Origin: an uncultured Pseudomonadota bacterium
GTDB taxonomy: Bacteria; Babelota; Babeliae; Babelales; UBA12409
Reading direction: 5' to 3'
NCBI GenBank assembly: GCA_964444435.1
Contig: CAYUHH010000001.1
Span: forward strand, 1-28,903
Length of the DNA stretch: 28,903 nt
Position 1 is the stretch's first letter. Each line of letters opens with the position of its first letter. A model generated the notes under the pieces. The model did no database searches. It was not told where the DNA came from and was given only the letters and a program-made list of their open reading frames with translations. Positions 3,177 through 27,686 of the stretch are shown here, one piece after another. Both the position numbers and the translations under genes were made by a program.

Positions 3177-4163
3177 TCATGGGGCGGTAAGATTGTTGAG
3201 AATTTCATGAACAATGTCATCTGCGTTTTTCTCTTCGCCATGGGCTTGAAACGATAGTATAAGCCTGTGTCTTAATATGGGTAGTGCCACTTTTTTTACA
3301 TCGTCAGGAGTAACAAATTGACGCTTGTTCATAAAGGCATGTGCTTGAGCGGCGCGGTAAAGATTTAATGTTGCGCGAGGAGATGCTCCACGTTGAATGT
3401 ATGGCTGAATGTTTTCTAAATCAAAGAGGTGTGGCTTGCGAGTTGCAAACACAAGATGTGTTATATAATCAATTACTTTTTGATCAACATAAATTTGTGA
3501 TATTACCTTTTGTGCTGTGATAATATCTTCTTTGCTGACGACTTTTTGAATAATTTGTTTATTAAATACACGTTTGATAATTTCTTTTTCTTCCTCCATA
3601 GAAGGATAATCAATATGTATTTTAAACATAAAGCGATCGATTTGTGCTTCTGGCAACTGGTATGTTCCTTGTTGTTCAAGAGGATTTTGTGTTGCAAAGA
3701 CAAGAAACGGTTCATCAAGCTTGTGTGTTTCTGAGCCAATAGTTACTTGTCGTTCTTGCATTGACTCAAGAAGGGCGGATTGTACTTTTGCAGGTGCTCG
3801 ATTTATTTCATCAGCTAAAACAATATTTGAAAAAATAGGCCCTTTTTTTGTTTCAAAATCTTGTGTTCTTGGGTTAAAAATAAGCGTTCCGACAAGGTCT
3901 GCAGGAAGAAGGTCTGGGGTAAATTGTATTCGCTTAAATGAAAGGCCGATGGCATCTGATATACATTTGATCATTGTTGTTTTTGCGATGCCGGGAACGC
4001 CTTCCAAGAGTACATGTCCGTCACACATAATTGCAATGAGCATAAGATCAATTGCTTCTTCATTTCCCACTATGATGCGTGAAATTTCTTCTTTGAGATG
4101 AGTAAATGGTTGAAAAAGGGTTCCCCATTCAGTGGGGTTAATTTCTTTATTCGTTTCAATCAT
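3177..4163 (-). CDS. moxR: MoxR-family AAA+ ATPase
   Basis: GHVLLEGVPGIAKT (Walker A), RIQFTPDLLPADLVG, LADEINRAPAKVQSALLE (Walker B), ATQNPLEQQGTYQLPEAQIDRF, GASPRA, LRHRLIL. Confidence 0.95.
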   Translation of the reverse strand: MIETNKEINPTEWGTLFQPFTHLKEEISRIIVGNEEAIDLMLIAIMCDGHVLLEGVPGIAKTTMIKCISDAIGLSFKRIQFTPDLLPADLVGTLIFNPRTQDFETKKGPIFSNIVLADEINRAPAKVQSALLESMQERQVTIGSETHKLDEPFLVFATQNPLEQQGTYQLPEAQIDRFMFKIHIDYPSMEEEKEIIKRVFNKQIIQKVVSKEDIITAQKVISQIYVDQKVIDYITHLVFATRKPHLFDLENIQPYIQRGASPRATLNLYRAAQAHAFMNKRQFVTPDDVKKVALPILRHRLILSFQAHGEEKNADDIVHEILNNLTAP

Positions 4164-4477: not shown

Positions 4478-4504
4478 TGTTTTCATACCTTGAAAGGGAT
4501 GGCG

Positions 4505-6157
4505 ATGGGCAAAAGAACCGTTTTTGTTGTAAGCTTAATAAGTGGTTTTTTTAGTGTTACGTATTGTGCGCGTACTTTCTTGAGTCTTCCGGTACCTTTT
4601 CATCCTACTTCTCCTGAGCGTCAAACAATGACGCGAGATCAAATGAGAGATTTTACTCAGGAGAAATATCGCAAATTTTCTATTACATTGTTAGGTGGTC
4701 AAGCCACAGAAACTGACAAGATAGCCAAATATTTTTTACCTTTTGAAAAAACATCATTAGTTGCAGGTGAAATAGGTTCTGATGCAGTAAAAAATCACGA
4801 AGCTGATTTGATTGCGAATTACTTTAATGTATGTACTGGTCGGGCTCGTGCAACGGCAGATGAAGCGTTGGATCAAAATAATATATTTGATGTTATTGAT
4901 ACATGGACTTTTCAAAGTAAGTTAAATTTTTGTCCTTCGCATAAATATTTTGTTATTGGATTAGTTTATCATCATCATATGTCATCAAATTTTGATAAGG
5001 GATGGTGGTTTGAGTTGGCTATGCCCATTATGTGTATAAAAAATAATATGGGAATGAGCGAAATAATTGAAGTTTGTGGTGGTGAAGGTGGTGATGATCC
5101 CCAGCAAGCTCCTTCGTTTTTTTCTACGGATGCGGATCAGTTTGCAGCGCAATCTATGACAGCGGCCTTACGGAGTGGGCAATTTCGTTGTGGAAAAATT
5201 GATAGTAGAGAGTATCGACGTACAAAGTGGGGCGTTGCGGATTTAGAGTTTCGGCTTGGTTATACTTACTTCAAAGAGCCTGCATATCATTTAAGTAGTT
5301 ATGTGGGGGTTTTGGCACCAACAGGTAATACGCCTACTGGTGAATTTATGTTTGAAAAGGTTGTTGGATATAATGGTCAGACGGGATTTTTTTTAGGTAC
5401 AAACGGTGGAATTAAAGTCTGGGCACATGATCAAAACTATTTATCATTTGAATTTGATACAGGTGCGACTATGTTTGTAGATAATTTGCAATGTCGTTCC
5501 TTTGATTTGTATGATAAGCAATGGGGACGTTATATTTGGGTTTACCCAAACAAGCAAAAGTTTAATGATAACGAAGAATCTGAGGTGACGATGAAAGCTC
5601 CTCTTAAGCCAGGGATAAATTATTTCTCTAGAGGGGTATATGTTGAGCATGGTTCTATTCGAAATTTAAACTTAGCATGGGTTTATACGATGAGCGATTT
5701 TCAAGGTGAGCTTGGTTATCATTTCTATTCTAGGGACCGTGAAAAGGTTTGTTTGGCTAAAACGTGGAATGATGAGGTTGCATTAGCTGCGTTATGGGAT
5801 AGTAATAATAATTTTATTGGTGCTGGTGAAAGTCGTAAAAGTAGAACGAATGCTGTCATAAATAATTATACTGAAGTTACGAATGATGTGAGAGAATTTA
5901 AATCTCTTGAAGGGTTAACCACTGAACAAATTACCAATAATGATATGTATCTACCAATTAAAAACGGTCAGATTGATTTAGGTTCTGCTGCCTGTCCATC
6001 CGTTGTTGTTCATACGGTGTATGGTTCGGTAGGGTATGGTTGGTATGACATTGTTTTTCCTACCTCTATTAATCTTGCTGGTGGCTATGAATTTGGGAAT
6101 GGAAATGAAGTTGTTGATCGTTGGAAGCTGTGGTTTAAAGTAGGTGTTTCGTTTTGA
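4505..6157 (+). CDS. Putative Cys-rich outer-membrane beta-barrel protein (Dependentiae-type family, by recollection)
   Basis: Start placed at ATG 4505 (AAGGGA RBS) rather than TTG 4490. It has a signal peptide, alternating aromatic/Gly beta strands (ADLEFRLGY, GELGYHFY, AGGYEFG), a C-terminal WFKVGVSF with terminal Phe (BAM beta-signal), and 9 Cys in the ORF translation. Confidence 0.7.
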   Translation: MGKRTVFVVSLISGFFSVTYCARTFLSLPVPFHPTSPERQTMTRDQMRDFTQEKYRKFSITLLGGQATETDKIAKYFLPFEKTSLVAGEIGSDAVKNHEADLIANYFNVCTGRARATADEALDQNNIFDVIDTWTFQSKLNFCPSHKYFVIGLVYHHHMSSNFDKGWWFELAMPIMCIKNNMGMSEIIEVCGGEGGDDPQQAPSFFSTDADQFAAQSMTAALRSGQFRCGKIDSREYRRTKWGVADLEFRLGYTYFKEPAYHLSSYVGVLAPTGNTPTGEFMFEKVVGYNGQTGFFLGTNGGIKVWAHDQNYLSFEFDTGATMFVDNLQCRSFDLYDKQWGRYIWVYPNKQKFNDNEESEVTMKAPLKPGINYFSRGVYVEHGSIRNLNLAWVYTMSDFQGELGYHFYSRDREKVCLAKTWNDEVALAALWDSNNNFIGAGESRKSRTNAVINNYTEVTNDVREFKSLEGLTTEQITNNDMYLPIKNGQIDLGSAACPSVVVHTVYGSVGYGWYDIVFPTSINLAGGYEFGNGNEVVDRWKLWFKVGVSF

Positions 6158-6213
6158 TTAAACTACGGTTTTTATTGTTTTTAGTTTGCTTTTTAGGATT
6201 TCAGAAGGTTTAC

Positions 6214-7218
6214 ATGAAAGAATCAATTTTAGTAACAGGTGGGGCCGGATACATTGGTTCACATACGGCACATTTATTAGCGCAGAAAGGGTATGATGTT
6301 ATTGTATTAGATGATTTACAGTATCATCAGCCATTTAATTGTTCGTGTGGCCGTCTTGTAAAAGGAAATGTTGGCGATGAATCTATTTTAGATGGTATTT
6401 TTTCAGAGAATACTATTAAAGCGGTCATACATTTTGCAGGATTTATTGCGGTGGGAGAATCGGTTAAAAATCCTACAAAGTATTACGAAAACAATGTTGT
6501 TAATACATTGAATCTTTTAAAAAAAATGGTTGAATATAACGTTCAACATATTATTTTTTCTTCAAGTGCTGCGGTGTATGGAATTCCAGATCAACTGCCT
6601 TTATCAGAAGACCATAAAAAGGTTCCCGTAAATGCATATGGCAATACAAAGCTTATTGTTGAGTATATGCTTTCTGATTTTGCTCGTGCTCATGACATTA
6701 ATTTTGTTGCGTTGCGTTATTTTAATGCGTGTGGGGCTGATTCAGAAAATGGTTTAGGTGAACGGCATGAACCAGAAACCCATATTATTCCGTTAGCATT
6801 GCGTGCAGTTTTGTGTGGTGAAGCGTTTAATATTTTTGGCGATGACTATGATACCCCTGATGGGACCTGTATTCGTGATTATCTTCATGTGAAAGACCTT
6901 GCTTCAGCGCACTTAGCGGCACTTTGTTATCTTGAAAATGATGGTAAGTCTGATTTCTTTAATTTAGGAACAGGAAAAGGGTATTCAGTTAAAGAGGTTT
7001 TACAGATGATTGAACATGTGATTGGTAAAGGTATTAAGGTTAATGTGTGTGCTCGTCGGGAGGGCGATCCGTCGGAATTGGTTGCTGACCCTAATAAAGC
7101 TCGAAGAATTTTACAGTGGACACCATCTTTTTCTGATTTGAGTAATATTGTAATGGATGCGTATCATTTTGAGTTATTTTTAAAAAGTAAGCAAAAAGGT
7201 GTCGAATTAATCTTATAA
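6214..7218 (+). CDS. galE: UDP-glucose 4-epimerase
   Basis: MKESILVTGGAGYIGSH NAD-binding motif, HFAGFIAVGES, FSSSAAVYG, YGNTK (YxxxK), LRYFNACGA, DYDTPDGTCIRDYLHV, RREGDP. Start placed at ATG 6214 behind GAAGGT. Confidence 0.95.
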   Translation: MKESILVTGGAGYIGSHTAHLLAQKGYDVIVLDDLQYHQPFNCSCGRLVKGNVGDESILDGIFSENTIKAVIHFAGFIAVGESVKNPTKYYENNVVNTLNLLKKMVEYNVQHIIFSSSAAVYGIPDQLPLSEDHKKVPVNAYGNTKLIVEYMLSDFARAHDINFVALRYFNACGADSENGLGERHEPETHIIPLALRAVLCGEAFNIFGDDYDTPDGTCIRDYLHVKDLASAHLAALCYLENDGKSDFFNLGTGKGYSVKEVLQMIEHVIGKGIKVNVCARREGDPSELVADPNKARRILQWTPSFSDLSNIVMDAYHFELFLKSKQKGVELIL

Positions 7219-7308
7219 TTTATTTAAGGTTAATAAAAAGTTAAATTATTTCCTAAATTATATTTTCGTGCTAGCGTGAGAAAAAGGCTGTTTTTAAGGG
7301 GAGCTCGT

Positions 7309-10300
7309 ATGAAAATTCATTTGGTTGCGGTGTTTTTTTTCTTTACGCATTGTTTTGCTCAAGACGTTAAAACTCAAGTAGAAGGTTTGATTAAAGAAAA
7401 TCATCAGCTTTGTATTTCACAAATTTTACAAACATTTAATGTGAATATTGATATTCCTCAGTATTCTGACCTTGCTCAAACAATTTTCAAAAATTTATGC
7501 TTAACGGTTGATAAGAATAAAATAAAAGTATTGCCCAATGGTGTTGAAGTTACAGGTCAGGCTCAATACAATGATCAAAATATTTCAGTTTCATTTCGAA
7601 TTTTAAAACCAAATTCATCATATGTTTTAGAAGTAATGACAACCATACCAAAACTTTCTCTGAGTGCAATTAACTCTTCTTTGCAAATTGTAGATGTAAC
7701 GGAATTGCAAAACGTTACTATTCTTTATTCGAATGCTTCTCTTAAAGATGATTTTAATATGATTCCGGTTAAACAAGGTTTAACGGTAGAAGCAGGGCTG
7801 AAATCTGCAGGATTTTTAACGCAAGCGTTAGGATCTGGTCTTAATAAAATAGCATCGCAAGTACGTTTACGCATATTTGTGCCAGTAGGCGCAAAGAGTA
7901 TGCAAGATGTGCAGACAAGGTTGGTACCGGCAGATGGTAAGCCGATAGAGTTGTGTCTTAAAGATTTGCCTGGTTTAAGTCAGATGCCACAAGACAATGC
8001 GTACATAAAGTCATTATTAAGTGACACATGTCTGAAGGCAGAGACATTTAATTTTGATGTACAAGAAGTGGATGGAAAAAATAAGATATCAGTATCATTG
8101 GCAGGTGAAGCAGAAGTAGTTGGCGCGAAGACAAAGGTAGAATTACATTTTCAAGATGGTAATTACATTGCGGCGGTAAAGATAAAGAGTCTCGATGACC
8201 TACTGAAGAATATGCCGGGCTTAAATGATGTCGGGGATCAACTAAAGAAACTTTTTACGTTCGAAGAGTTGCTTTTTGTGGTTTCAAATACGTCAGGATT
8301 GATGCAACTTAAGACAACAGAAGAGAAACCGGAACAAACACAGACAATGGAAGATGAGTTTGCAGATTTTGATGATGAAGAACTGTTGGCATTATTTGGA
8401 GAAGAGTTTATAGAGGAAACAGAGGCTGGAGAAGAAGAGCAAACGGGAATGCAGGTTGAGCCTGGCTGGAGTATAACGGGTAAGGTGAAAGCTTCGGGAA
8501 TTATAGCGGATACGCTTTCAAAGACAAATTTGAAGGGTGCATATATAAGCATGCATATGTCAAAGAAGGGTAGCCCTGATCAAAAACAAACATTAAAAGA
8601 TATACAGATTAAGTTAGAGCCGTTAATGAAAACAGATGAAGGACTTTGTTTAGGATCATTCTTGCAAGGTGTATTGGCAAAGTTTGGTATTGATGCGTTA
8701 GTTGCACCGGTAAAAGATATTTTGGACTTTGTATGTTTTGGAACAGATATTGGTATTACCTTTAATGCTGACATGAAGCCTGAATTATTTATACAGGGAC
8801 CATTGAAGAAAAAACCAAATATGACATCGATGGTAAAAATTGGACCAGCTCTTGAGGGATCAACAAGTAAGTTCTCAGTTGTATTTGGACTTAAGGGAGC
8901 GGATCTAAAAGTAAGTGATATTATTTCATTAAAAGAACTCGACATATTTGAATTGGAAAACCCGCTTATTTTAATGACAACTAAGGATGATGCAAGTGTA
9001 TTTGATGTGCAAAATGGAGCAGTTGATCAAAATGCACCAGGTGTGATACATCACTTACAAAAAGGTTTAACGGTAGAAGCAGGTCTGAAGTCTACAGGAT
9101 TCTTAACGCAAGCGTTAGGGCCTGGCCTTAATAAATTAGCATCGCAAGTGCGCTTACGTATATTTGTGCCAGCAGGCGCAAAGAGCATGCAAGATGTGAA
9201 GACGAAGTTGGTGCCGGTAGATGGTAAGCCGATAGAGCTGTGTCTTAAAGATTTGCCTGGTTTAAGTCAGATGCCACAAGACAATGCGTACATAAAGTCA
9301 TTATTAAGTGACACATGTCTGAAGGCAGAGACATTTAATTTTGATGTACAAGAAGTGGATGGAAAAAATAAGATATCAGTATCATTGGCAGGTGAAGCAG
9401 AAGTAGTTGGCGCGAAGACAAAGGTAGAATTACATTTTCAAGATGGTAATTACATTGCGGCGGTAAAGATAAAGAGTCTCGATGACCTACTGAAGAATAT
9501 GCCGGGCTTAAATGATGTCGGGGATCAACTAAAGAAACTTTTTACGTTCGAAGAGTTGCTTTTTGTGGTTTCAAATACGTCAGGATTGATGCAACTTAAG
9601 ACAACAGAAGAGAAACCGGAACAAACACAGACAATGGAAGATGAGTTTGCAGATTTTGATGATGAAGAACTGTTGGCATTATTTGGAGAAGAGTTTATAG
9701 AGGAAACAGAGGCTGGAGAAGAAGAGCAAACGGGAATGCAGGTTGAGCCTGGCTGGAGTATAACGGGTAAGGTGAAAGCTTCGGGAATTATAGCGGATAC
9801 GCTTTCAAAGACAAATTTGAAGGGTGCATATATAAGCATGCATATGTCAAAGAAGGGTAGCCCTGATCAAAAACAAACATTAAAAGATATACAGATTAAG
9901 TTAGAGCCGTTAATGAAAACAGATGAAGGACTTTGTTTAGGATCATTCTTGCAAGGTGTATTGGCAAAGTTTGGTATTGATGCGTTAGTTGCACCGGTAA
10001 AAGATATTTTGGACTTTGTATGTTTTGGAACAGATATTGGTATTACCTTTAATGCTGACATGAAGCCTGAATTATTTATACAGGGACCATTGAAGAAAAA
10101 ACCAAATATGATTTCAATGGTTAAGATAGAGCTTGCTCCTGAAGGTTTTGCTCCTAAGTTTTATATTACGTTTGGTCTCAAAGGTGGATCACTTACTTTG
10201 AGTGATATCCTTCCAATGGATCAGCTGGATATCTTTGAGTTAGAAAATCCAATTGTTTTAATGACAACTAAGGATGATGGGAGTGTTTTTGATGTTGAAG

Positions 10301-13300
10301 ATGGGGTGCTCAATGAAAGTGCGCCGGGAGCCATTCATCATTTACAGAAAGGATTAACTGTCGAAGCCGGAATTAAATCTACCGGATTCTTAACACAAGC
10401 ATTGGGACCTGGCTTTAATAAACTTGCATCGCAAGTGCGCTTGCGTATATTTGTGCCAGTAGGTGCAAAGAGTATGAAGGATGTGCAAACGAAGTTGATT
10501 CCTGTTGATGGAAAACCACTTGAAATATGCTTGAAAGATCTTCCTGGGGTTAGTCAAATTCCTCAAGATAATGCATACATAAAATCATTGTTGAGTGATA
10601 CTTGTTTGAAAGCAACTGCGTTTGATTTTGATGTACAACAGGTTGATGGTAAAAAGAAAATATCAGTATCGTTAGCCGGTGAGGCAACGGTTGTTGGTGT
10701 TCAAACTCAAGTAGAGTTACATTTTCAAGATGGCAAATATATTGCGGCTGTGAAAGTTAAAAGTATTGATGATCTTTTAAAAAATATTCCCGGACTTAAT
10801 ATTATTGGTGATCAGCTTAAAAATTTCTTTACATTTGAACAGTTATTATTTGTTATTGCCAATACGTCGGGCAAAATTCAATTGCAGATTAACAAGGATC
10901 CAAAGAAGCCTAGTCTTGAAAAATTAAAAGCGGAATTTGGATTGCTGATACCGACAGCTCAAAAAGCTCCCGAAGCAGGAATGATTGTAAAGCCTGGAAT
11001 TACGGTTGGTGGAAAAGTTGAGTCAGATGGAGTAATCAAAACAATATTTAGTGCAATAAAAATTGTTGGTGCATATGTAAGCATTACAAAGCCAAAAGTT
11101 GAAGAAGCAACAACGCCACAAGTTAACGTTAATACACAAGGCATTGATGCATCTATGAATGGATATGTGGTAAAAATTGATCCAATAACCGCTGATGGCA
11201 CTTTGGATTTAGGAAATATATTATTAGGATTTTTTGATAATTTTGGGTTTGGTTCTTTCTTGAGTCCATTTAAAAATTTATTGAGTACATTCTCCTTTGG
11301 TATAGGGTTTGACTTGGGCATTGATTTTAGATTAGGAAAGCCTCTTTTCTTTATTAATGGACCGTTCAAATTAAATCCTTCACTACTTGGTATGTTAAAA
11401 ATTAATTTACCCTTAAAAGGATTTTCACTTGATGGAGTAGATTTTTCATTTGGATTAAAAGGGCCCTCCCTTAAATTAATAGAATTTATTCCTCTTGACG
11501 TATTAAAAGGACTTAAATTAGATTTATTCGAATTGCAAAATCTTGTTGCAGCGCTTACTAATGACATGGGAATGAGTATTTTTGACATAAAGGATGGTAT
11601 TCTCGATATAAATGCTGTTGATGCACTTCTTAATTTGCCAAAAGGACTTATGATTGAAGGCGAATTGAAAACCGCAGGGTTTTTGGCCCAAGCATTAGGT
11701 TCATTAATCGATGATGTTTTGAGTAGTGTGCGGTTCCGTATTGTTGTTCCATTTGGCGCGACTTCATTGAAAGATATTAAATTAAGTCTTAATTTACTTA
11801 AAAAACAAAAGATTTGCTTAAATAAATTGCCCGGTCTCTCCGGAATGAGCGATGTTCCTCTGTTAAAAGATGTGTTAAATACTTGTCTTGAAGTTAATTC
11901 ATTAGATTTAAACCCTATTTCTAATGATAAATACGAACTTGCAGTTGATGGGGTGGCAAAAGTCGCAGGGCAGGATGCGGATGTTCAATTACGTCTTATG
12001 GTTGATTTAAAAACAAAGAAAAAAACGTATATTGTTGGTGTTAAACCGCTTGGTAAATTAAGTGCAGAACAGATTGAGCCGGCTCTTTCATTGGTCGATA
12101 AGATTGCGGCGATAGAGAACCCGATGCTTATTTATGCAGAGGAAGATTATGAAGGGCAAATATTTTCCTTTCCTCGCGTTAATAAAGGTTTAAACATTAT
12201 TACTGATTTTAAGGCTAAAGGTTTTATTGGTGACGTATTTTCAAATCTTGGTTTGAAAAAAATTAAAGCAATGATGAAAATTACCAAAAATGATAAAGGT
12301 AAAATTCGTCCAGCGATAATATTATTCCTTGAAGGTGAAGATGATGGTGTGCCAATGTTGGGTGCTTTGGAAAAAATAATACAAGGGCTCGATATTGGCG
12401 TTGCAGAGAGTTTGCAGTCAGTAATAGAGACAATTAATTTTGGAACAGCAATTGGTATTTTATTTGATGACAAGGATAAACCAGTTTTATTCTTTGATGG
12501 GAAATTAATTAAGGGCACCGGTATTGAGGCGATGGTTAAATTTACTAAATTCGATGAAAAGGGGTCAATTTTATCCAAACATTTAGGTGATATTGCTGGA
12601 GCTGCAGTAGTTGTTGATGAACAGAGAAATATTGGATATAAAGTTACCGGTGCTATTCGCACAGGAGAAATTAGATTAGGTGATATCTCAAAAGATCTTA
12701 GTTTTCTTGATTCACAGATTAAAATTAATGACCCTATTATTGCCTTTACGAATAGTGACGGGGAATCTGCTTATGATATTGATGTCCGCGATATGGCTAT
12801 TAAAGTTATAAAAGGTCAATCAATAGAAAATCTTAATATGGGAATTACTATTTTAGGTAGAATTGAGTTTCCTCCTGGATCATATTTGTATATGATTCTT
12901 TCTAAGTTTGGACTTGATACAGCGGGGATACGTATAGAGATTCCGGTTTTAGCAAAAGAGTCAAAACAAGTTGAGTTTAAATTTGAAACTGATAGTGGAG
13001 GCAAGTCAAAAAAATTCTGCTTAAGTGATTTGAAAGGGATGGTTCCGGCTAATATTGTTCCATCAATTGCTTTATTGCAAAAAGTTTTGGGGGGATCTGA
13101 TATTTGCCTTCAAAAGAGAAATTTAGGAATGCAGCCGGTTGAAACAGGCCTTGATTTTATTTTTAACGGCTACTTTATAGTTGATGATAAACCGCAAGAT
13201 ATGGCTATCGTATTTAATGTTAAGCAAAAAGAATCTGAAGGTGGTAGTGGCCCGGAAGTTATCTTAACAACTAAATTAAGTGGGGATCTTGATTTGGGAA

Positions 13301-16300
13301 TGTTTAATGATAAGTTGAAAGGCCAAGTTGTTCTTAAGCAGCCTCGATTTATTATTTCATCCCAAGAAACTGAGGCTGATGTATTAGGTATTGGTGAGAT
13401 TCAAAAAGGTTTTAGTATTAGATCGCAAGTTCATTTTGGTGGATATATTGGACAAGCACTTGATATGTTCCAGTTAAATGATATGTATGCTACCGTTCGA
13501 ATTCCACCTGATCCTGCAGATTTAGATGGATATATTATCGAGGTAAGTCAAACGTTTGATAAAGCACAAAAACCTGCGGGGGATGATCTGCAAATTTTAG
13601 GCTTCGATTATATCTTTAAAAGCGGTATCCCTCCAACGTTGGCTCTTAATTTGAATACGCTTTTCAGGATTCCTGGAGGTTCTTCAAAACCAGTAAGTTT
13701 AACCTTCACAACAGCGGTGAGTGGTCCTGAATTTACTTTGGCTGGAACTGCAAAGTGTAATCAAGGGGCGTGTCCCGCATTATCGCTCGCGAAATTCTTT
13801 CCAGCAACAATTAGTGCAACAAAGGATGTTCCCCTTGCTGCGTTAATTCATGTTATAGGTGGTAGCGTATTAGGTCTTGGAGGAAGTGGTGTCGCTGATT
13901 TATTTGGTCAACAAGCTCAAATTTCTTTTGATGTTGATCCTGTACATGTAAAAAAATCTGGACTTAAAGGAAAGGTGAGTAAAATCTGTGCAACTGATTT
14001 TACGAAAGTTTATACATTTTTAGGAAATGTTTCATCTGGTTTTGTTGATGTTTTCAATAAAATTCCAGGTTTTTTTTGTATCACAGATGCATCATTTAGC
14101 GTTGCTCAAGATAAAGTTACTATTGCGGGTGTCGTTATTGACCCTGGTATTGTGCTTAAGGGTAATTTTGCATGCGACATTAAGGCACTGCCAATGACGG
14201 GAAAGATAGATTTAAGTATTATCCCTCCAAGTTTTTCTAATGTGATTACTAAACTACAGCAGATTGGCGTTCATGGGGTTGCGAAGTTAGATCCTGTTAA
14301 GTGGGGCGACTTTATGTCAATAACCGATGTTTCTGGTAAAGGTGGCCCGACACTTGAAATTGATGCAACTTTGAAGAAGCAGGGTGTCAAGCTGTCTGGT
14401 TTAGTTAATATAATTCATATATTGAATGTTGTTGCAGATGTGGTATTCGGTCTTGATGGAATAAGTCTTAATGTTTCTCAATCAATTGCGGGTATTCAGT
14501 TGGACCGTGAAGTAACGATTCCATTTAAGAATCCTGCGGGCGGCAGTGTTTCCTGTGTGCTTTCTCAAGGACTTGTGAAGGCGGTAACGGGGTCACTTGA
14601 AAAATTGGTTAAAGAGGCTACGGACGTGTTGAATAAAGTAGCCGGTGGAGGGCAGCAGGCATTATTAGGTTCATGTGATACTGTTCTTAAAACCTTGAAG
14701 CCTTTTTTGAATATTTCGTGTACTGATTGTCTTAATAATCTTGGTCCGCTTGGATTTATTCAGGCTGTGATTGATGCGCTAAATAAATATGCCAAGAAAA
14801 TATTAGATTCACTTGATATTAGAAGTGCAGGATTTGAAGTTGATTTTGGCAGTATTATGGCGAAAAAGATGCCATCGTTAATAATTAAATATGTTTTTGG
14901 TGGTGGCGCAGAGAAAAAATTAACGATAGGGAACTTTGATGTAACAAAGCCACAAATGGTTATTGATCAGTTAGTAATGGGTATTTGGAAAGAGTTTGCA
15001 CCAGGTCAACTTGTTTCACTTATAACTGGTAATGTTGCGGAAATTTCTAAATCAATGACAGATGCGCTTAAGGACCAAAAATTGGAGTGTACCGCTTCAT
15101 CTCAGTTTGGTGGTGCTGACATTGTATTGAAGGTTAATTTCCAGCCTTCAGATCCGCAATCAGCCCAAGCGACAGGGATTGTTTCTAAGTTATGTCTGGG
15201 AAATTTGATAACAGCTGCAAATAATCTTGGCGTTGGTATTCCTTCCGTTAAATTCCCTTCAATAGGTTGTATGAAAGAAGCAGCTCTTACTGTTTCAGCA
15301 GGTCCATTTGCTGCAATTCAAGGAACGGTTGGTTTGTTGGGGGCAAACGTACAGCTTACTGGGTCTGTTTCTAAGGATGGCGTACAACTTAATGGGACAC
15401 TTGATAAAGATGTATCTTTGGGGTTGGTCAAATTAAGCGGCCTTGAGGGAACTGGGTGTAGTTGTGGTATAACATTGAATAAGTTTTTACAACAAATTGA
15501 GCTAGATGGGAATGTCGAAATTGGTGATGGGAAGGTGATAAACTCTGTTGGGCACCTTGCTATAAGAACAGATGAAATTATTATTGATTCGACTGCTTCT
15601 ATTTTGGGTTTGAAAGCTAAGTTTAAGGCGAAGGCTCCTTTTAGTTCTCCTGAAGACATTAGTGCTACTCTGACGATTCAACAAGATATTGCACAAAATA
15701 TTAAAGATGCAATGGTTGAGTCTCTTAATGAAGCCAAAAGTCAGGCGACTGCAGGGCTTGATAAAGTGAATTCGGTTTTCTCCAAGATTAAATCTAAGTG
15801 TGGTCCTTTGGGATCTGTTTGTGATTCTGCCATGGGCGGTGCGAAAAAAATAGTTAATTCAGCAAAAGATGCGTTTAATGCGGTTACAAGTTTAGTTAAT
15901 ACTTTTGCTCAGTTGCCGCTATCTATTAAGTCAATCGTGATCAAAGCAAAGTTTATAGACATTCAACGCAAGGGATCTGCTACTGTGATATTTAATACTG
16001 GTGGTTCGGATCAGTCGATGACCGTTAATGTTTCATTGGCCGGCATGAAAGCTTTTAGTCAAGATGTTGCTCTGGCAATTATTAATAATTCATTCAAATC
16101 TCCTTTTGCAAATGCTAAGAATTTAGCTGCAGGTTTTGATAATTTAGAAAAGAAATTACTTGATATTTTAAGTAACATTGGTGATTTGTTTAAGAATTTA
16201 ATGGGGGCTGCCGTTAAAGAAATAGGCAAATTGGCGGACAGCGCTTCAGAGGCTGCCTTAAATACAGCTAAAGACATGACCGCAACTATGGGTAATTTGT

Positions 16301-16596
16301 CAGGCGATACAACAGCAATAATGTCAGACATTTCTTCAAGTATGACAAGCGTTGAAGGTATAGGTAATTTAGCTACGGGCGCTGTTGCAGATGTTTCAAA
16401 AGCGCTAGATGATGCAAAGGATGCTGTGAAGGCTGCAACACAAGCCGCGAAGTTGGCAACTGAGGTGGCAGGCAAGGCGTTAGATGCGGCAAAACAAGCT
16501 GTGGCAAAAGCTGCCAAGGCGGCCAAAGAAGCGGCTGACAAGGCTTTTAATGCTGCAAAGAAAGCGGCAGAAAAATTGAATCCAAGTCATTGGTAA
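7309..16596 (+). CDS. Giant (~3095 aa) exported repetitive beta-rich protein of unknown function
   Basis: Single open frame. ATG 7309 follows AAGGGGA. Signal peptide MKIHLVAVFFFFTHCFA|QD; ~200-aa internal subrepeats; duplicated C-terminal module; Ala/Lys-rich helical tail. No recognised catalytic motif. Confidence 0.9.
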   Translation: MKIHLVAVFFFFTHCFAQDVKTQVEGLIKENHQLCISQILQTFNVNIDIPQYSDLAQTIFKNLCLTVDKNKIKVLPNGVEVTGQAQYNDQNISVSFRILKPNSSYVLEVMTTIPKLSLSAINSSLQIVDVTELQNVTILYSNASLKDDFNMIPVKQGLTVEAGLKSAGFLTQALGSGLNKIASQVRLRIFVPVGAKSMQDVQTRLVPADGKPIELCLKDLPGLSQMPQDNAYIKSLLSDTCLKAETFNFDVQEVDGKNKISVSLAGEAEVVGAKTKVELHFQDGNYIAAVKIKSLDDLLKNMPGLNDVGDQLKKLFTFEELLFVVSNTSGLMQLKTTEEKPEQTQTMEDEFADFDDEELLALFGEEFIEETEAGEEEQTGMQVEPGWSITGKVKASGIIADTLSKTNLKGAYISMHMSKKGSPDQKQTLKDIQIKLEPLMKTDEGLCLGSFLQGVLAKFGIDALVAPVKDILDFVCFGTDIGITFNADMKPELFIQGPLKKKPNMTSMVKIGPALEGSTSKFSVVFGLKGADLKVSDIISLKELDIFELENPLILMTTKDDASVFDVQNGAVDQNAPGVIHHLQKGLTVEAGLKSTGFLTQALGPGLNKLASQVRLRIFVPAGAKSMQDVKTKLVPVDGKPIELCLKDLPGLSQMPQDNAYIKSLLSDTCLKAETFNFDVQEVDGKNKISVSLAGEAEVVGAKTKVELHFQDGNYIAAVKIKSLDDLLKNMPGLNDVGDQLKKLFTFEELLFVVSNTSGLMQLKTTEEKPEQTQTMEDEFADFDDEELLALFGEEFIEETEAGEEEQTGMQVEPGWSITGKVKASGIIADTLSKTNLKGAYISMHMSKKGSPDQKQTLKDIQIKLEPLMKTDEGLCLGSFLQGVLAKFGIDALVAPVKDILDFVCFGTDIGITFNADMKPELFIQGPLKKKPNMISMVKIELAPEGFAPKFYITFGLKGGSLTLSDILPMDQLDIFELENPIVLMTTKDDGSVFDVEDGVLNESAPGAIHHLQKGLTVEAGIKSTGFLTQALGPGFNKLASQVRLRIFVPVGAKSMKDVQTKLIPVDGKPLEICLKDLPGVSQIPQDNAYIKSLLSDTCLKATAFDFDVQQVDGKKKISVSLAGEATVVGVQTQVELHFQDGKYIAAVKVKSIDDLLKNIPGLNIIGDQLKNFFTFEQLLFVIANTSGKIQLQINKDPKKPSLEKLKAEFGLLIPTAQKAPEAGMIVKPGITVGGKVESDGVIKTIFSAIKIVGAYVSITKPKVEEATTPQVNVNTQGIDASMNGYVVKIDPITADGTLDLGNILLGFFDNFGFGSFLSPFKNLLSTFSFGIGFDLGIDFRLGKPLFFINGPFKLNPSLLGMLKINLPLKGFSLDGVDFSFGLKGPSLKLIEFIPLDVLKGLKLDLFELQNLVAALTNDMGMSIFDIKDGILDINAVDALLNLPKGLMIEGELKTAGFLAQALGSLIDDVLSSVRFRIVVPFGATSLKDIKLSLNLLKKQKICLNKLPGLSGMSDVPLLKDVLNTCLEVNSLDLNPISNDKYELAVDGVAKVAGQDADVQLRLMVDLKTKKKTYIVGVKPLGKLSAEQIEPALSLVDKIAAIENPMLIYAEEDYEGQIFSFPRVNKGLNIITDFKAKGFIGDVFSNLGLKKIKAMMKITKNDKGKIRPAIILFLEGEDDGVPMLGALEKIIQGLDIGVAESLQSVIETINFGTAIGILFDDKDKPVLFFDGKLIKGTGIEAMVKFTKFDEKGSILSKHLGDIAGAAVVVDEQRNIGYKVTGAIRTGEIRLGDISKDLSFLDSQIKINDPIIAFTNSDGESAYDIDVRDMAIKVIKGQSIENLNMGITILGRIEFPPGSYLYMILSKFGLDTAGIRIEIPVLAKESKQVEFKFETDSGGKSKKFCLSDLKGMVPANIVPSIALLQKVLGGSDICLQKRNLGMQPVETGLDFIFNGYFIVDDKPQDMAIVFNVKQKESEGGSGPEVILTTKLSGDLDLGMFNDKLKGQVVLKQPRFIISSQETEADVLGIGEIQKGFSIRSQVHFGGYIGQALDMFQLNDMYATVRIPPDPADLDGYIIEVSQTFDKAQKPAGDDLQILGFDYIFKSGIPPTLALNLNTLFRIPGGSSKPVSLTFTTAVSGPEFTLAGTAKCNQGACPALSLAKFFPATISATKDVPLAALIHVIGGSVLGLGGSGVADLFGQQAQISFDVDPVHVKKSGLKGKVSKICATDFTKVYTFLGNVSSGFVDVFNKIPGFFCITDASFSVAQDKVTIAGVVIDPGIVLKGNFACDIKALPMTGKIDLSIIPPSFSNVITKLQQIGVHGVAKLDPVKWGDFMSITDVSGKGGPTLEIDATLKKQGVKLSGLVNIIHILNVVADVVFGLDGISLNVSQSIAGIQLDREVTIPFKNPAGGSVSCVLSQGLVKAVTGSLEKLVKEATDVLNKVAGGGQQALLGSCDTVLKTLKPFLNISCTDCLNNLGPLGFIQAVIDALNKYAKKILDSLDIRSAGFEVDFGSIMAKKMPSLIIKYVFGGGAEKKLTIGNFDVTKPQMVIDQLVMGIWKEFAPGQLVSLITGNVAEISKSMTDALKDQKLECTASSQFGGADIVLKVNFQPSDPQSAQATGIVSKLCLGNLITAANNLGVGIPSVKFPSIGCMKEAALTVSAGPFAAIQGTVGLLGANVQLTGSVSKDGVQLNGTLDKDVSLGLVKLSGLEGTGCSCGITLNKFLQQIELDGNVEIGDGKVINSVGHLAIRTDEIIIDSTASILGLKAKFKAKAPFSSPEDISATLTIQQDIAQNIKDAMVESLNEAKSQATAGLDKVNSVFSKIKSKCGPLGSVCDSAMGGAKKIVNSAKDAFNAVTSLVNTFAQLPLSIKSIVIKAKFIDIQRKGSATVIFNTGGSDQSMTVNVSLAGMKAFSQDVALAIINNSFKSPFANAKNLAAGFDNLEKKLLDILSNIGDLFKNLMGAAVKEIGKLADSASEAALNTAKDMTATMGNLSGDTTAIMSDISSSMTSVEGIGNLATGAVADVSKALDDAKDAVKAATQAAKLATEVAGKALDAAKQAVAKAAKAAKEAADKAFNAAKKAAEKLNPSHW
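7952..8824 (+). repeat. 873-bp direct repeat, copy 1 (identical to 9239..10111; period 1287 bp = 429 codons)
   Basis: Line-by-line comparison showed no mismatch between 7952-8824 and 9239-10111. The first mismatches are at 7951/9238 and 8825/10112. Confidence 0.95.
9239..10111 (+). repeat. 873-bp direct repeat, copy 2
   Basis: Identical to 7952..8824. A third, diverged in-phase copy follows a further 1287 bp downstream. Confidence 0.95.
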
Positions 16597-16609
16597 GGAA
16601 GGGGTACGG

Positions 16610-17623
16610 ATGAAACGGTTAGTGATGTTATTAATGATAAGCGAGGTAATGAGTGAGTTGCCTCCTATGCCTCAAATATCTTCAGGTGGATGTGGAAATA
16701 GTAAGGCAATACTTTTTGTGAGACAAATTCGTTATGTAAATGTCCTTAAAGATTATATTCAAAAAAAAGGTGCAGAAATTAAGGATGCAGCGTTTGTAAT
16801 CAAAATTGCACAAATTAAGATTAAGGGGTTACAAAGTATTATTGAATCAATGAAAATAGTGATTAATAGTTATGCTGCAAAAATTGAATCAACAAAAGAA
16901 GGTGTGAAAGAGTTACAAGGTCAGTATCCAGATGTTAATAAATTGTCGGGGGTAGCTTTTTGTGAAGCTCGTTATGCGTTGGCGATGATTCCTCCTTTAA
17001 AATTTGCCCTTAAAAATGGATATATGGATTTTGATAATTCTTTTGTATACACTAACGTGGCTATGCAAATGGGTAGTTGTTTGAAAGACACAACAGTTTC
17101 TCTTGATGAGATGGTGAGTAGTTCCATACAAACGGGAGTAATTACCGATAAGCAATTGGAGGCGATGATGGGTGCAAGTCGTGCAGACTTTCCAAGTAAG
17201 TATGGCGAGTCTTTTGATCAGTATGCAAAGAGTTTTAATCTGCCTTTCGATAAAGGTGGGGTGCAAGATAATTTGATTCAATTTACTCGTGCCATACGCG
17301 GTCTCAAACCTTTTCTTGATCAATTGTCAAAAACTATTGCGGGAATTAAGGTGCGCATTAAAAATGCATTGAACTTGATGCAGAAATATAGCACTTCAAT
17401 GGCTACAGAGTATCAAAATGTTTTGGACAATCAAAATCTTGTAAAAAATCACATTGCAACGATTCAAGCGCAAAAAAAGATTATTGAAGATTGTGCAACT
17501 GAGATAATAAATGCAAAAGATACGATACAAGATCTTGTTGTAAAAATAAACAATGCTCAATCAGATAATGGTATGTTTAAGGATTGTCCTAAATGGTTAC
17601 AAACAGCTCTTAAGGGAATCTAA
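16610..17623 (+). CDS. Hypothetical, probably exported, alpha-helical/coiled-coil protein (337 aa), partner of the giant gene
   Basis: Lies 13 bp after the giant stop with RBS GGAAGGGG. Short N-terminal hydrophobic segment; long heptad-like helices near both ends; 5 Cys. Confidence 0.8.
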   Translation: MKRLVMLLMISEVMSELPPMPQISSGGCGNSKAILFVRQIRYVNVLKDYIQKKGAEIKDAAFVIKIAQIKIKGLQSIIESMKIVINSYAAKIESTKEGVKELQGQYPDVNKLSGVAFCEARYALAMIPPLKFALKNGYMDFDNSFVYTNVAMQMGSCLKDTTVSLDEMVSSSIQTGVITDKQLEAMMGASRADFPSKYGESFDQYAKSFNLPFDKGGVQDNLIQFTRAIRGLKPFLDQLSKTIAGIKVRIKNALNLMQKYSTSMATEYQNVLDNQNLVKNHIATIQAQKKIIEDCATEIINAKDTIQDLVVKINNAQSDNGMFKDCPKWLQTALKGI

Positions 17624-17624
17624 G

Positions 17625-17653
17625 AAAAAGGCCAACAAAATGTTGGCCTTTTT
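17625..17653. terminator. Bidirectional rho-independent terminator
   Basis: Perfect inverted repeat AAAAAGGCCAACA-aaa-TGTTGGCCTTTTT between convergent genes, with a U-tract on both strands. Confidence 0.88.
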
Positions 17654-17676
17654 AATGCTAAAAAAGATAGTTTTTT

Positions 17677-18057
17677 TCAAGTTGCTTGTTGAGTTCCATC
17701 ATAGGTATATTTATTTGATCCTTTCTTTAATAATTCCTTTATCTTTGTGGTGTTGATATATATATTTGTGCCGAATCCTCCTCCCTTTGCAGAGCAGTGG
17801 GCAAAGAAAAAGCCGCTAGAAGAAGGAGGCGATTCTTTTGCAGGAGTGTTAATAGCGTTGTTCCATTTTGGACAACCGGGGCATGTGGATCCTCCCAAAA
17901 ATCTCCCTTGACTTAAACAGGCACATATAGAACTCATATAATCAGATGATGATGAGCCAATTATGCTTAATCCAGGAAAATTTTCATTAATGCAGGTAAG
18001 CATAGGGAGAAGGGGTAGATAGATGAAAATTGATAATAAAAATAAGGTTTTTTTCAT
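17677..18057 (-). CDS. Small secreted Cys-rich hypothetical protein (126 aa, 6 Cys)
   Basis: Signal peptide MKKTLFLLSIFIYLPLLP; CAC and CPGC motifs; RBS GAGG upstream. Confidence 0.75.
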   Translation of the reverse strand: MKKTLFLLSIFIYLPLLPMLTCINENFPGLSIIGSSSSDYMSSICACLSQGRFLGGSTCPGCPKWNNAINTPAKESPPSSSGFFFAHCSAKGGGFGTNIYINTTKIKELLKKGSNKYTYDGTQQAT

Positions 18058-18075: not shown

Positions 18076-18648
18076 TTATTCAGGTGCTTTTGGTAATTCA
18101 GGTTTTTTTATATCTTTAAGTTGTTTAGTTAAATCACCCTTGTTATTTTGAAGTAATTCAGTTGAAGTTTTAATATTTTCTAAATATTGATTTGTTTCCG
18201 CAGTTTGGTCGGAAGCATTTTTATTGAGTGTAGGTTTCTGAAAGCCAAGGTCTTTAAGATATAATGATGAGAACGCTTTTTCTAATTTTTTTCTTTGATT
18301 TATGTAAGCTGTTTTAGTTGTATCTGAGAAACCTTTTGTTGCATCATCTATCGATTTATTCCATTCCCCTGTTTTCATTTGACCTAATCCAATTAAGGCG
18401 TCTCCGATGGTTGCGAGTTTATCGTTAATTGGGTTTGTTTGTGTATTGTAAGTTTCTAATTTTTTATTGTAAGTTTTTAAGGCGTCGGTATATTTTTGGT
18501 TAATTGATTCAATGATAGTGGATGCCGGTATTTTTTCTACGTTTGTTGAAGATCTATTTGTGAGTATTGTCAAATTTGTTTGATATTCTGTTTGGCTTTG
18601 TAATTGAATTGTTATTAGTAGGATGGAGATATATAAAAATTTTTTCAT
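18076..18648 (-). CDS. Secreted helical hypothetical protein (190 aa)
   Basis: Signal peptide MKKFLYISILLITIQLQS; Lys/Thr/Asn/Gln-rich helical body; 4-bp ATGA overlap with the upstream gene. Confidence 0.8.
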   Translation of the reverse strand: MKKFLYISILLITIQLQSQTEYQTNLTILTNRSSTNVEKIPASTIIESINQKYTDALKTYNKKLETYNTQTNPINDKLATIGDALIGLGQMKTGEWNKSIDDATKGFSDTTKTAYINQRKKLEKAFSSLYLKDLGFQKPTLNKNASDQTAETNQYLENIKTSTELLQNNKGDLTKQLKDIKKPELPKAPE

Positions 18649-19742
18649 TTTTCATCCTTTGGGCTAATTCTTTCTACAATGTTATTTACTTGTGTTTTTG
18701 TGTAAACTTCTCCACGAGGGTTGACTGATGTTACAGATGTAAGGCTTGGATGTGTTGGTTTCTTATCCTTTTCAATTGTGGCAAACCATAAACTATTAAA
18801 TGTTTTGTAGCAATTAAGGTCGACGATAGAATCCGTAAGATCGGTGTTTTCAAAGTTTGCGCCTAATACCGGTGCGCTGAATAATGTTTTTTTCATGATT
18901 GAATTTTTGAAAGATGTTGCGGAAAGATCGGTGTTTTCAAATATCGCTCCAGTTGCATTACTTGCAATTGTGCCTGTTCCATTTCCGATTACGACGCTTT
19001 CAAAGATAAGGTTTTTTGCCGAACCATTCGTTATTGTAAGATTTGTTATATGTGGAGAGGGAGGAGGAGGGTCTTCGTTTTTGGCATCATCTATGACGGT
19101 CATGGTAAAATTGCTGTTATCTATGATTGAGTCGGTTATAATAATGTTTTCAGCGTTTAGTTGTGTTAGGTCTGCATTGTTGAATATACATTTATCTATG
19201 GCCAATGTGCCATGTACGATTGAATTGCTTAGTTGTACCTTTTGGCCATCATTAATATTGCTAAATTTGTTTGTTATTTCGTTATAATTGTGAAAGTTGC
19301 AGCCCATGAAGGCTGTCGGTTTTTTATTATTCTCATTAAAAGAGCATCCATTAAATGAACAACCGTAAAAGGTACAGTTAGAAAAAATAGTATTTGCCAT
19401 TTTGGCGCCATCAAATTTTGTATTGGTAAAGGTGCAGTTGGTAAGTGCGGTGAGGCCGGTGCTTGTTGGTGAGCTGAAAATTGCGTTTGAAAAATCGGCA
19501 TTCATTAAGTTAAGTACACTAATCTTAGTTTCTTCAAGATGTGCATTTTGAAAATTAACAGTTTTTGAGGGGATAAAAAAAGAATTAAGCATGCATCCTT
19601 TTAAGTTTGCATCTTCAAGATTAGGAGTGGGTGAGCCTTTTTTTGTATTATTTATTGTTTGTATGCATTTAAAAATGCTTGGTTTTGAATAAGTAAAATG
19701 GTGAGTTAATAAAATAATAGATAATAAAAGTATTTTTTTCAT
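18645..19742 (-). CDS. Signal-peptide-bearing pentapeptide-repeat protein
   Basis: Runs such as NLMNA-DFSNA, ALTNC-TFTNT-KFDGA-KMANT-IFSNC-TFYGC-SFNGC and IFENT-DLSAT-SFKNS-IMKKT. Signal peptide MKKILLLSIILLTHHFTYS; RBS GGAGG. Confidence 0.85.
   Translation of the reverse strand: MKKILLLSIILLTHHFTYSKPSIFKCIQTINNTKKGSPTPNLEDANLKGCMLNSFFIPSKTVNFQNAHLEETKISVLNLMNADFSNAIFSSPTSTGLTALTNCTFTNTKFDGAKMANTIFSNCTFYGCSFNGCSFNENNKKPTAFMGCNFHNYNEITNKFSNINDGQKVQLSNSIVHGTLAIDKCIFNNADLTQLNAENIIITDSIIDNSNFTMTVIDDAKNEDPPPPSPHITNLTITNGSAKNLIFESVVIGNGTGTIASNATGAIFENTDLSATSFKNSIMKKTLFSAPVLGANFENTDLTDSIVDLNCYKTFNSLWFATIEKDKKPTHPSLTSVTSVNPRGEVYTKTQVNNIVERISPKDEK

Positions 19743-26219: not shown

Positions 26220-27686
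<1,467 letters not shown>

Follow-up and report, generated by a model that had tools for sequence, protein, structure and literature searches.

The window, as we call the whole 28,903-nt stretch of DNA analysed here (contig CAYUHH010000001.1, from an uncultured bacterium), was found to carry a genuine two-gene operon encoding a giant exported protein of 3095 aa and, directly downstream, a partner protein of 337 aa. Sequence comparisons indicated that the giant protein belongs to a genuine and very rare family that matches no described one. The family is new at the sequence level, and its design most resembles that of the known giant amphipathic beta-sheet proteins that handle lipids, while being a member of none of their families. 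We tentatively propose that the locus encodes a two-protein extracytoplasmic scaffold which attaches to the surface of a lipid or membrane much as the ApoB belt does, with the partner as a helical co-factor; this is the reading we favour, and we rate it somewhat below an even chance.

The giant gene was located at positions 7309..16596 of the forward strand (3095 aa plus stop). Its open reading frame (ORF) spans 7276-16596, and ATG 7309 was taken as the true start because the Shine-Dalgarno sequence AGGGGA lies 6 nt 5' of it and because P0002, an orthologue 86% identical to the giant protein, starts at the same residue. The partner gene (16610..17623, forward strand) begins with an ATG placed 13 nt past the stop of the giant gene and has its own ribosome-binding site (RBS), GGAAGGGG. 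The operon is ended by a bidirectional intrinsic-terminator hairpin at 17625..17653, assigned to neither strand, in which a 13-bp stem stands between A and T runs; folding returned a dG of -17.7 kcal/mol and a z of -5.3. A simple terminator scan missed this hairpin, probably because the flanking A/T runs pair too and consume the T tail. The ORF, RBS and hairpin thus confirmed the layout described in an initial annotation made from the letters of the window, namely a 9.3-kb signal-peptide gene, a partner 13 bp later and one terminator for both. The same hairpin also faces, and is shared by, a convergent ORF of 126 aa (17677-18057, reverse strand) that has no family match. In L001 the corresponding place is taken by an ORF of equal size, and on the P0002 contig by a cut gene of 117 residues; no counterpart was found in the other lineages compared by BLAST.

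The giant protein opens with a Sec-type signal peptide (aa 1-17, 7309..7359; this and all following features of the giant gene are on the forward strand). Read from the sequence, the N-terminus is MKIHLVAVFFFFTHCFA|QD, with a hydrophobic stretch of 14 residues and a predicted cleavage at CFA|QD. An N-terminal cap follows (aa 18-145, 7360..7743). It contains C35/C64, the first of the Cys pairs, shows homology to the terminal part of a B-type module and is conserved in P0007-P0009 and P0011-P0013. From aa 146 to about 2225, piecewise self-BLAST resolved five super-repeat units of ~429 aa, each consisting of two modules of ~215 aa, in agreement with the repetitive character that the initial annotation had recognised. 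The piecewise approach was needed: Tandem Repeats Finder returned nothing, the 1287-nt period being over its limit, and self-BLAST of the whole protein gave the self-match only.

Unit 1 (aa 146-574, 7744..9030) is made of an A module plus a B module, each with a Cys pair 25-29 residues apart. Unit 2 (aa 575-1003, 9031..10317) was delimited by self-comparison, and unit 3 (aa 1004-1434, 10318..11610) is 54-57% identical to units 1 and 2. Unit 4 (aa 1435-1833, 11611..12807) retains 28% identity to unit 3 and is the best modelled part of the repeat region, with a predicted local distance difference test (pLDDT) score of 70-86. Unit 5 (aa 1834-2225, 12808..13983) retains 24% identity to unit 3 and blends into the conserved core. 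Each module starts with a KGLxVxGxL..G motif, and the ten module openings, of general form KGΦxΦxGxΦ..G, were found at aa 157, 386, 586, 815, 1015, 1230, 1446, 1627, 1845 and 2034. Ten Cys pairs with a spacing of 23-30 residues are distributed over the N-terminal cap, the majority of the modules and the C-terminal core; they have the form ΦCΦ...CΦ and enclose a short helical hairpin in the structural models. The Sec signal peptides and conserved Cys pairs present in both proteins of the operon suggest that they fold extracytoplasmically, in an oxidising compartment.

Units 1 and 2 share an exact tract of 873 nt (7952..8824), repeated in register at 9239-10111 with a spacing of 1287 nt. A general repeat finder under-reported this duplication (300 nt at 93%), and the full exact length was obtained by in-register comparison. 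Units 1 and 2 are 88.3 and 87.6% identical to their orthologous units in P0002, compared with 82.1 and 83.4% to the other P0002 unit. Because each unit is closer to its orthologous P0002 unit despite the exact tract, the comparison indicates an old duplication whose two copies were made partly uniform again by recent gene conversion. An exact repeat of 873 nt also carries a risk that the number of units is mis-assembled in a metagenome contig.

Within the first unit, an acidic and probably disordered linker with the motif DEFADFDDEELLALFGEEF was recognised at 8323..8457 (aa 339-383), and a second copy lies in unit 2 at 9610-9744 (aa 768-812). The motif, with consensus DEF[AS]D[FE]D[DE]E.L[LM]ALFGE[ED], occurs twice in P0002 and once in L005/P0006, and is absent from the other lineages. 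The equivalent linker of unit 3 is not acidic and falls within a stretch of pLDDT below 50 in the model of aa 1004-2030. The acidic motif resembles a short linear interaction motif, possibly one for binding to a host.

The repeats are followed by a conserved C-terminal core of ~570 aa (aa 2226-2794, 13984..15690) that is common to most of the family and contains long beta-meander blocks and Cys-bounded helical inserts. Two helices of ~36 residues come next (aa 2795-2867, 15691..15909), linked by a conserved KC-x8-C loop, a motif also present in P0008 and P0012-P0015. Three strands separate this helix pair from an amphipathic helical tail (aa 2910-3095, 16036..16593), whose last ~66 residues are Ala/Lys-rich 11-residue repeats. 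The hydrophobic moment of the tail peaks sharply at 100 degrees, which bears out the amphipathic helical ending proposed initially, and its lag-11 periodicity reached a z of 5.1 in the giant protein and of 3.7-10.1 in four relatives. Amphipathic helices built on hendecads are a typical feature of apolipoproteins, perilipins, synuclein and LEA proteins. An outer-membrane barrel was considered for the giant protein and rejected, as its composition includes much too little Tyr (1.0%) and Trp (0.2%).

Relatives of the giant protein were searched for with an exhaustive HMMER scan, in which a profile of the five units was run against 1.84 billion representative proteins and found 11 proteins in total. 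These are the orthologue P0002, P0006-P0009 (1240-2388 aa), P0010 (121 aa), P0011 (524 aa) and P0012-P0015 (879-1105 aa). Genome and metagenome scans added L006, L007, L012, L013 and L014, and a scan of the viral collection IMG/VR yielded no relatives. A word-indexed homologue search returned P0002 only, whether the query was the full protein or the family alignment, and missed P0006-P0009 even though these were rows of the query; P0006 and P0008 were confirmed to be present in the collection that it covered.

Every complete relative has a signal peptide, most of them with an A|Q cleavage site. P0006-P0009, P0012 and P0013 share with one another the signal peptide, the N-terminal Cys-pair cap, the C-terminal core and the helical tail, and P0014 and P0015 have the signal peptide, core and tail, the Cys-pair cap not being seen in these two. 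Members differ mainly in module number, which runs from ~1-2 to ~10 with cap, core and tail constant. Module gain thereby accounts for a 3.5-fold range in family length, from 879 to 3095 aa, the giant protein being the longest member seen.

The partner, a protein of 337 aa that is predicted from its sequence to be helical, starts with a signal peptide and contains five conserved Cys as well as the conserved motifs LPPMPQIS..GGCGN and CPKWLQTAL.GI. In every relative of at least 1240 aa, a gene of 300-360 aa starts at most 13 nt from the stop of the giant gene or overlaps it, and a partner homologue lies directly 3' of every relative longer than 1700 aa. Four independent lineages could be shown to possess a homologue of the partner, namely the window group, L005 (BLAST 6e-8 to the window partner), L002/L006 with L012 and L014 (profile E-values of 1.7e-22, 7.5e-11 and 2.3e-10) and L003/L007 (BLAST 6e-21 over the full length). 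The homologues share the signal peptide and an N-terminal ΦPxΦ...C motif, and all but those of the L002/L006 lineage have a C-terminal CPxΦ(L/I) motif.

Co-occurrence of the partner with homologues of the giant protein, which the initial annotation had proposed as a check, was therefore observed for the large members in four independent lineages and is not universal across the family. Beside the most divergent large relative, of 1240 aa, L004 encodes an exported helical protein of 335 aa (5695-6702, forward strand) with no detectable similarity to the partner (E 0.14), which is either a non-orthologous replacement or a partner that has diverged past recognition. Downstream of P0013 there is a convergent autotransporter gene and downstream of P0014 an unrelated ORF of 249 aa, and the P0012 contig ends there. 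At least one of the small members is without a partner. The tail of the giant protein was also considered as a partner copy that had become fused to it, and an HH-align probability of 0.3% led us to reject this.

For both proteins, Pfam, NCBIfam, PHROGs and PADLOC returned nothing above threshold, the residual noise being located on the acidic linker or on helical segments, and PDB sequence searches with the giant protein, both as a single sequence and as profiles, returned no match. A Pfam scan of eight relatives detected no domain in any of them. These negative searches are in line with the initial description of a giant protein with no recognisable enzymatic domain and, together with the signal peptides on both proteins, with that of an exported system undescribed so far. 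The weak labels YukE (P0005), LXG (tail of P0009), tape-measure and SpiroCoCo were dismissed as coiled-coil noise. As for a phage or defence origin, the PHROG and PADLOC matches were only acidic low-complexity and coiled-coil noise, in addition to the negative viral scan. A search of BFVD gave nothing useful.

Structural models were obtained with AlphaFold2 from alignments of full-length homologues (A4, A5); a two-unit alignment was dropped, as it was staggered over 1323 columns, with identical units apparently aligned to each other. The model of aa 2020-3095, based on a 6-row alignment, had a pLDDT of 66.2 and a predicted template modelling (pTM) score of 0.37, with beta blocks at 70-88 and the tail at 31-60. 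It showed runs of 4-6 long strands joined by hairpins, Cys-bounded helical inserts, a two-helix hairpin and very long terminal helices. The model of aa 1004-2030 was poorer (pLDDT 57.1).

Across the 72 predicted strands of at least 7 residues, the mean absolute difference in Kyte-Doolittle hydropathy between even and odd positions was 3.11, compared with 1.75 +/- 0.14 in within-strand shuffles, one strand face being 75% hydrophobic and the other 60% polar. The alternating hydrophobic and polar strands reported initially were thus supported: amphipathic beta-strands are predicted to dominate the giant protein, and short helices do interrupt them in the models. Moreover, 36 of the 95 DSSP strands measure at least 10 residues and 31 inter-strand turns are of 3 residues or fewer, and these tight turns indicate a meander topology.

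When the model of aa 2020-3095 was compared with the PDB by Foldseek, ApoB100 ranked first (9ea7, E 3.8e-4, prob 0.97; 9e9r, E 5.4e-4, prob 0.98), followed by VDAC, FhuA and other barrels with non-significant E-values. For the model of aa 1004-2030, LptD came first (9ia2, 4.3e-4, prob 0.33) and ApoB100 second (1.8e-3), followed by FimD and others. A TULIP/BPI-like module was also considered on account of the module size and set aside, since the predicted helices are short and no BPI, CETP, P47 or OrfX appeared among the Foldseek matches.

On these grounds we suggest that the giant protein might work as a chain of ~215-aa modules, in which antiparallel meander strands with a predicted length of 8-14 residues would expose one aliphatic and one polar face. 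Each module is predicted to carry a short helical hairpin bounded by a Cys pair, and the chain would close with a helical hairpin and an amphipathic tail of 11-residue periodicity. The hydrophobic face of the sheet and the tail could then lie on, or enclose, a lipid phase, be it a membrane surface, a lipid particle or a lipid track, and the number of modules would set the surface or the distance covered. The helical partner may bind the helical end of the giant protein or the same lipid surface, as a stoichiometric co-factor. The complex would be either kept on the bacterial envelope or released, possibly via the nearby type II secretion system (T2SS), towards a host membrane.

The closest parallel, albeit a weak one, is the lipid-binding beta-belt of human ApoB100, a sheet resting on a lipid surface. 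This belt is formed by 120 strands with a mean of 11 residues and has inserts that are ~60% amphipathic helix, with a large helical insert at its C-terminal tip (PMC11839476). ApoB100 and the protein described here are both giant and secreted, and the latter is predicted to have, like ApoB100, a very long antiparallel amphipathic meander sheet, mostly helical inserts and amphipathic helices near the C-terminal end. However, the two share no sequence similarity, and the giant protein is bacterial, lacks the vitellogenin-type N-terminal domain, has its predicted sheet split into regular, duplicating, Cys-stapled modules of ~215 aa and is accompanied by a dedicated partner gene; lipid binding is here a putative property. 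LptD, of the Lpt bridge, offers a second parallel as a lipid-handling antiparallel sheet and as the top Foldseek match of the repeat-region model. That match has a probability of only 0.33 on a model of pLDDT 57, there is no Pfam match to LptD/OstA, and the aromatic content of the giant protein is unlike that of barrels.

Several observations weigh against a lipid-surface scaffold. Confidence in the models is moderate to low (pLDDT 66 and 57, pTM 0.37-0.40), and the alignments behind them comprise 6-7 rows. The Foldseek TM-scores are about 0.1 (~0.14 for ApoB100) and the next matches are generic beta-barrels, so that the ApoB match may signify just a long antiparallel meander sheet. Ordinary beta-sandwich domains also have alternating hydrophobic and polar strands, and right-handed coiled coils also fit an eleven-residue periodicity. 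No lipid-metabolism genes are linked in the loci seen, and the N-terminal domain of the large lipid transfer proteins (LLTP/vitellogenin) was not found by Pfam in the giant protein and its relatives. Finally, the smallest relatives appear to have no partner, so the pair is not obligatory family-wide. With regard to the models, the authors of the ApoB100 structure state that lipid-free AlphaFold2 models of that protein collapse (PMC11839476), a caveat that applies to the giant-protein models too.

A bolder form of the scaffold reading, which we consider decidedly unlikely, is a bacterial apolipoprotein-like system. Here a modular amphipathic beta-belt, an 11-mer tail and an 'exchangeable' helical partner would wrap or coat lipid outside the cytoplasm. 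They might form lipid particles, or clamp onto the membrane of a host or an outer membrane, and so help a bacterium of reduced genome to scavenge lipid or move it, with the belt length tuned by module duplication.

Among the alternatives, the one that survives best, albeit as a rather unlikely explanation, is a surface adhesin, a fibre or an S-layer-like coat. In such a protein closed beta domains would form a rod whose length depends on how many modules it has, with the partner serving as tip, anchor or assembly factor. A giant, Sec-exported and repetitive protein with recent duplication and gene conversion, and with large copy-number variation between lineages, is typical of surface proteins under host or phage pressure. 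The acidic linear motif within the probably disordered linkers fits this picture, as does the fact that, in the neighbourhoods examined, nothing envelope-related is linked to the giant gene other than an epimerase, an uncharacterised exported protein and secretion genes.

The giant protein indeed recalls the RTX/BapA/SiiE-type adhesins in size, Sec export, tandem module duplication and copy-number variation. However, the repeat domains, secretion signals and anchors of these adhesins were not found here, and the module type of the giant protein is not in Pfam. More generally, Pfam and NCBIfam scans of the giant protein and eight relatives detected no known adhesin, S-layer or anchor domain (Ig-like, cadherin, RTX, beta-helix, SLH, autotransporter, two-partner secretion, LPXTG, lipobox or type IX secretion C-terminal domain). 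The strands are long and hairpin-connected rather than sandwich-like, the tail is an array of amphipathic helices and not an anchor, and the structural matches are lipid-associated or membrane sheets, not adhesin repeats.

It is very unlikely that the operon encodes a two-component membrane-damaging toxin, in which the partner would be an alpha-pore-former of the ClyA/Hbl/Mak type and the giant protein would deliver it to, or dock it on, the target membrane. This alternative derives from the two best PDB matches of the partner-family profile, MakE (6w08, E 6e-4) and the near-identical chain 6tao (8e-4), followed by MakA (6dfp, 7p3r) and 6ezv at 0.04-0.06, all of a length similar to that of the partner. 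The pair is exported and a T2SS lies nearby in three related genomes. The partner also resembles the components of ClyA-family tripartite toxins (MakA/B/E, AhlABC, SmhABC, Nhe, Hbl) in being an exported helical protein, those components having ~340-370 aa and being encoded beside co-acting components.

However, the Mak match is limited to residues 204-325 of the partner, i.e. its last two helices, against Mak 73-201, is not collinear over the whole fold, and stands at coiled-coil noise level among plain coiled-coil matches such as keratin, sigma-1 and haemagglutinin. Pfam scans of the individual family members showed only coiled-coil families, with no recurrence of HBL/ClyA. Nor does the partner have a strongly hydrophobic head, its maximum 19-residue Kyte-Doolittle mean being 1.23 with no segment above 1.6. 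Membership of the partner in the ClyA/Mak family was rejected on these three points. The tail of the giant protein, as seen in the HH-align comparison above, is unrelated to the partner.

The least probable alternative, and an improbable one in our estimate, is that the giant protein is a repeating-beta-groove (RBG) bridge like AsmA/TamB/YhdP and VPS13/ATG2, conducting lipid along a continuous hydrophobic groove between two membranes, e.g. those of bacterium and host. A resemblance does exist to the AsmA-like and RBG proteins (TamB, YhdP, YdbH; VPS13, ATG2, BLTP1-3), which are likewise large and extracytoplasmic or intermembrane, with mainly amphipathic beta-strands and with helical elements; a part in lipid handling is plausible. 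The meander strands are long and amphipathic, as are the end helices, LptD of the Lpt lipid bridge is among the top matches of the aa 1004-2030 model at low probability, and the best HH-align stretch, non-significant, falls in the C-terminal region of TamB (residues 1032-1091).

Three features define the AsmA-like proteins, namely a membrane anchor at the N-terminus, a Chorein-N domain and beta-taco repeats of the AsmA-like type (PMC10345924). In contrast, the giant protein has a short cleavable signal peptide and not an inner-membrane anchor, and neither it nor its relatives gave any Pfam or NCBIfam profile match to Chorein_N (E<=1), AsmA, AsmA_2, DUF490 or VPS13. Its ~215-aa modules with helical hairpins differ from units of about five strands plus a loop, and a 3.5-fold length variation is hard to square with a fixed intermembrane gap. 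HH-align of the family profiles against E. coli TamB returned probabilities of 0.8% (A4) and 0.1% (A1), and, in the AlphaFold and Foldseek comparison that the initial annotation had suggested for VPS13, ATG2, TamB and YhdP, RBG proteins were absent from the top 50 PDB matches of both models (pLDDT 57-66). Membership of the RBG or AsmA-like family is therefore not supported by the profile, structural and length comparisons; the giant protein might nonetheless act through a groove. Of the lipid-transfer or membrane-tethering rod proposed initially, association with lipid or membranes is retained as the best guess, while the attribution to the RBG family is not, and the analysis removes a tempting but unsupported 'giant TamB/VPS13' label.

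If the lipid-surface scaffold is correct, it would represent the first bacterial counterpart of the ApoB-type design, having arisen independently from a duplicable, disulfide-stapled module. It would also constitute a new route of lipid handling or theft by uncultured, probably host-dependent bacteria, and the members of 879-1240 aa would provide a compact model of how amphipathic sheets bind lipid. Even conservatively, a new and very rare family with a cap-module-core-tail architecture and a dedicated partner, absent from Pfam, NCBIfam and the PDB, can be added to annotation resources.

Upstream of the giant operon, and divergent from it, a block of reverse-strand genes comprises gspD (3-1949, cut by the window edge), gspC (1949-3091) and a MoxR-type AAA+ ATPase gene (3177-4163). 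The gspC/gspD pair was accordingly found where it had been placed initially, ~4 kb upstream; gspC is divergent in sequence, its best NCBIfam model being GspC_delta, below the cut-off of that model. The gspD-gspC-MoxR block is also present in L005, and gspC and MoxR lie at the edge of L006. The synteny gspD-gspC-moxR / 555-aa ORF-epimerase-giant-partner is common to the related genomes L005 and L006 only and may simply reflect relatedness.

The ORF of 555 aa (4490-6157, forward strand) shares 4 nt with the beginning of the epimerase gene and encodes a protein with a signal peptide and a C-terminal ...WFKVGVSF that resembles an outer-membrane beta-barrel signature; Pfam, NCBIfam, PHROG and the PDB offered no match to it. 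In L005 and L006 the giant gene is likewise preceded by a homologue (61-64% identity), and a cut gene stands there on the P0002 contig. The 555-aa protein could be a fourth operon member or an envelope partner.

Less than 2 kb downstream of the giant/partner pair, a pentapeptide-repeat protein is encoded at 18645-19742 on the reverse strand. A pentapeptide-repeat protein is also found downstream in the unrelated L003 lineage (16887-17726, forward strand), and L007, of the same sequence, has there an ORF of 309 aa (5107-6036, forward strand). The genes of the window and of L003 differ in orientation and show no BLAST similarity at 1e-5, and their common position may be a coincidence. The Dependentiae host assumed in the initial annotation is a conjecture. 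Further along the window, the beta subunit of the F1 ATP synthase (AtpD; 26235-27686, forward strand) scored higher against the enzymes of Caldalkalibacillus, Fusobacterium and Geobacillus than against those of E. coli or Acinetobacter, thus suggesting that the host is not a typical gammaproteobacterium.

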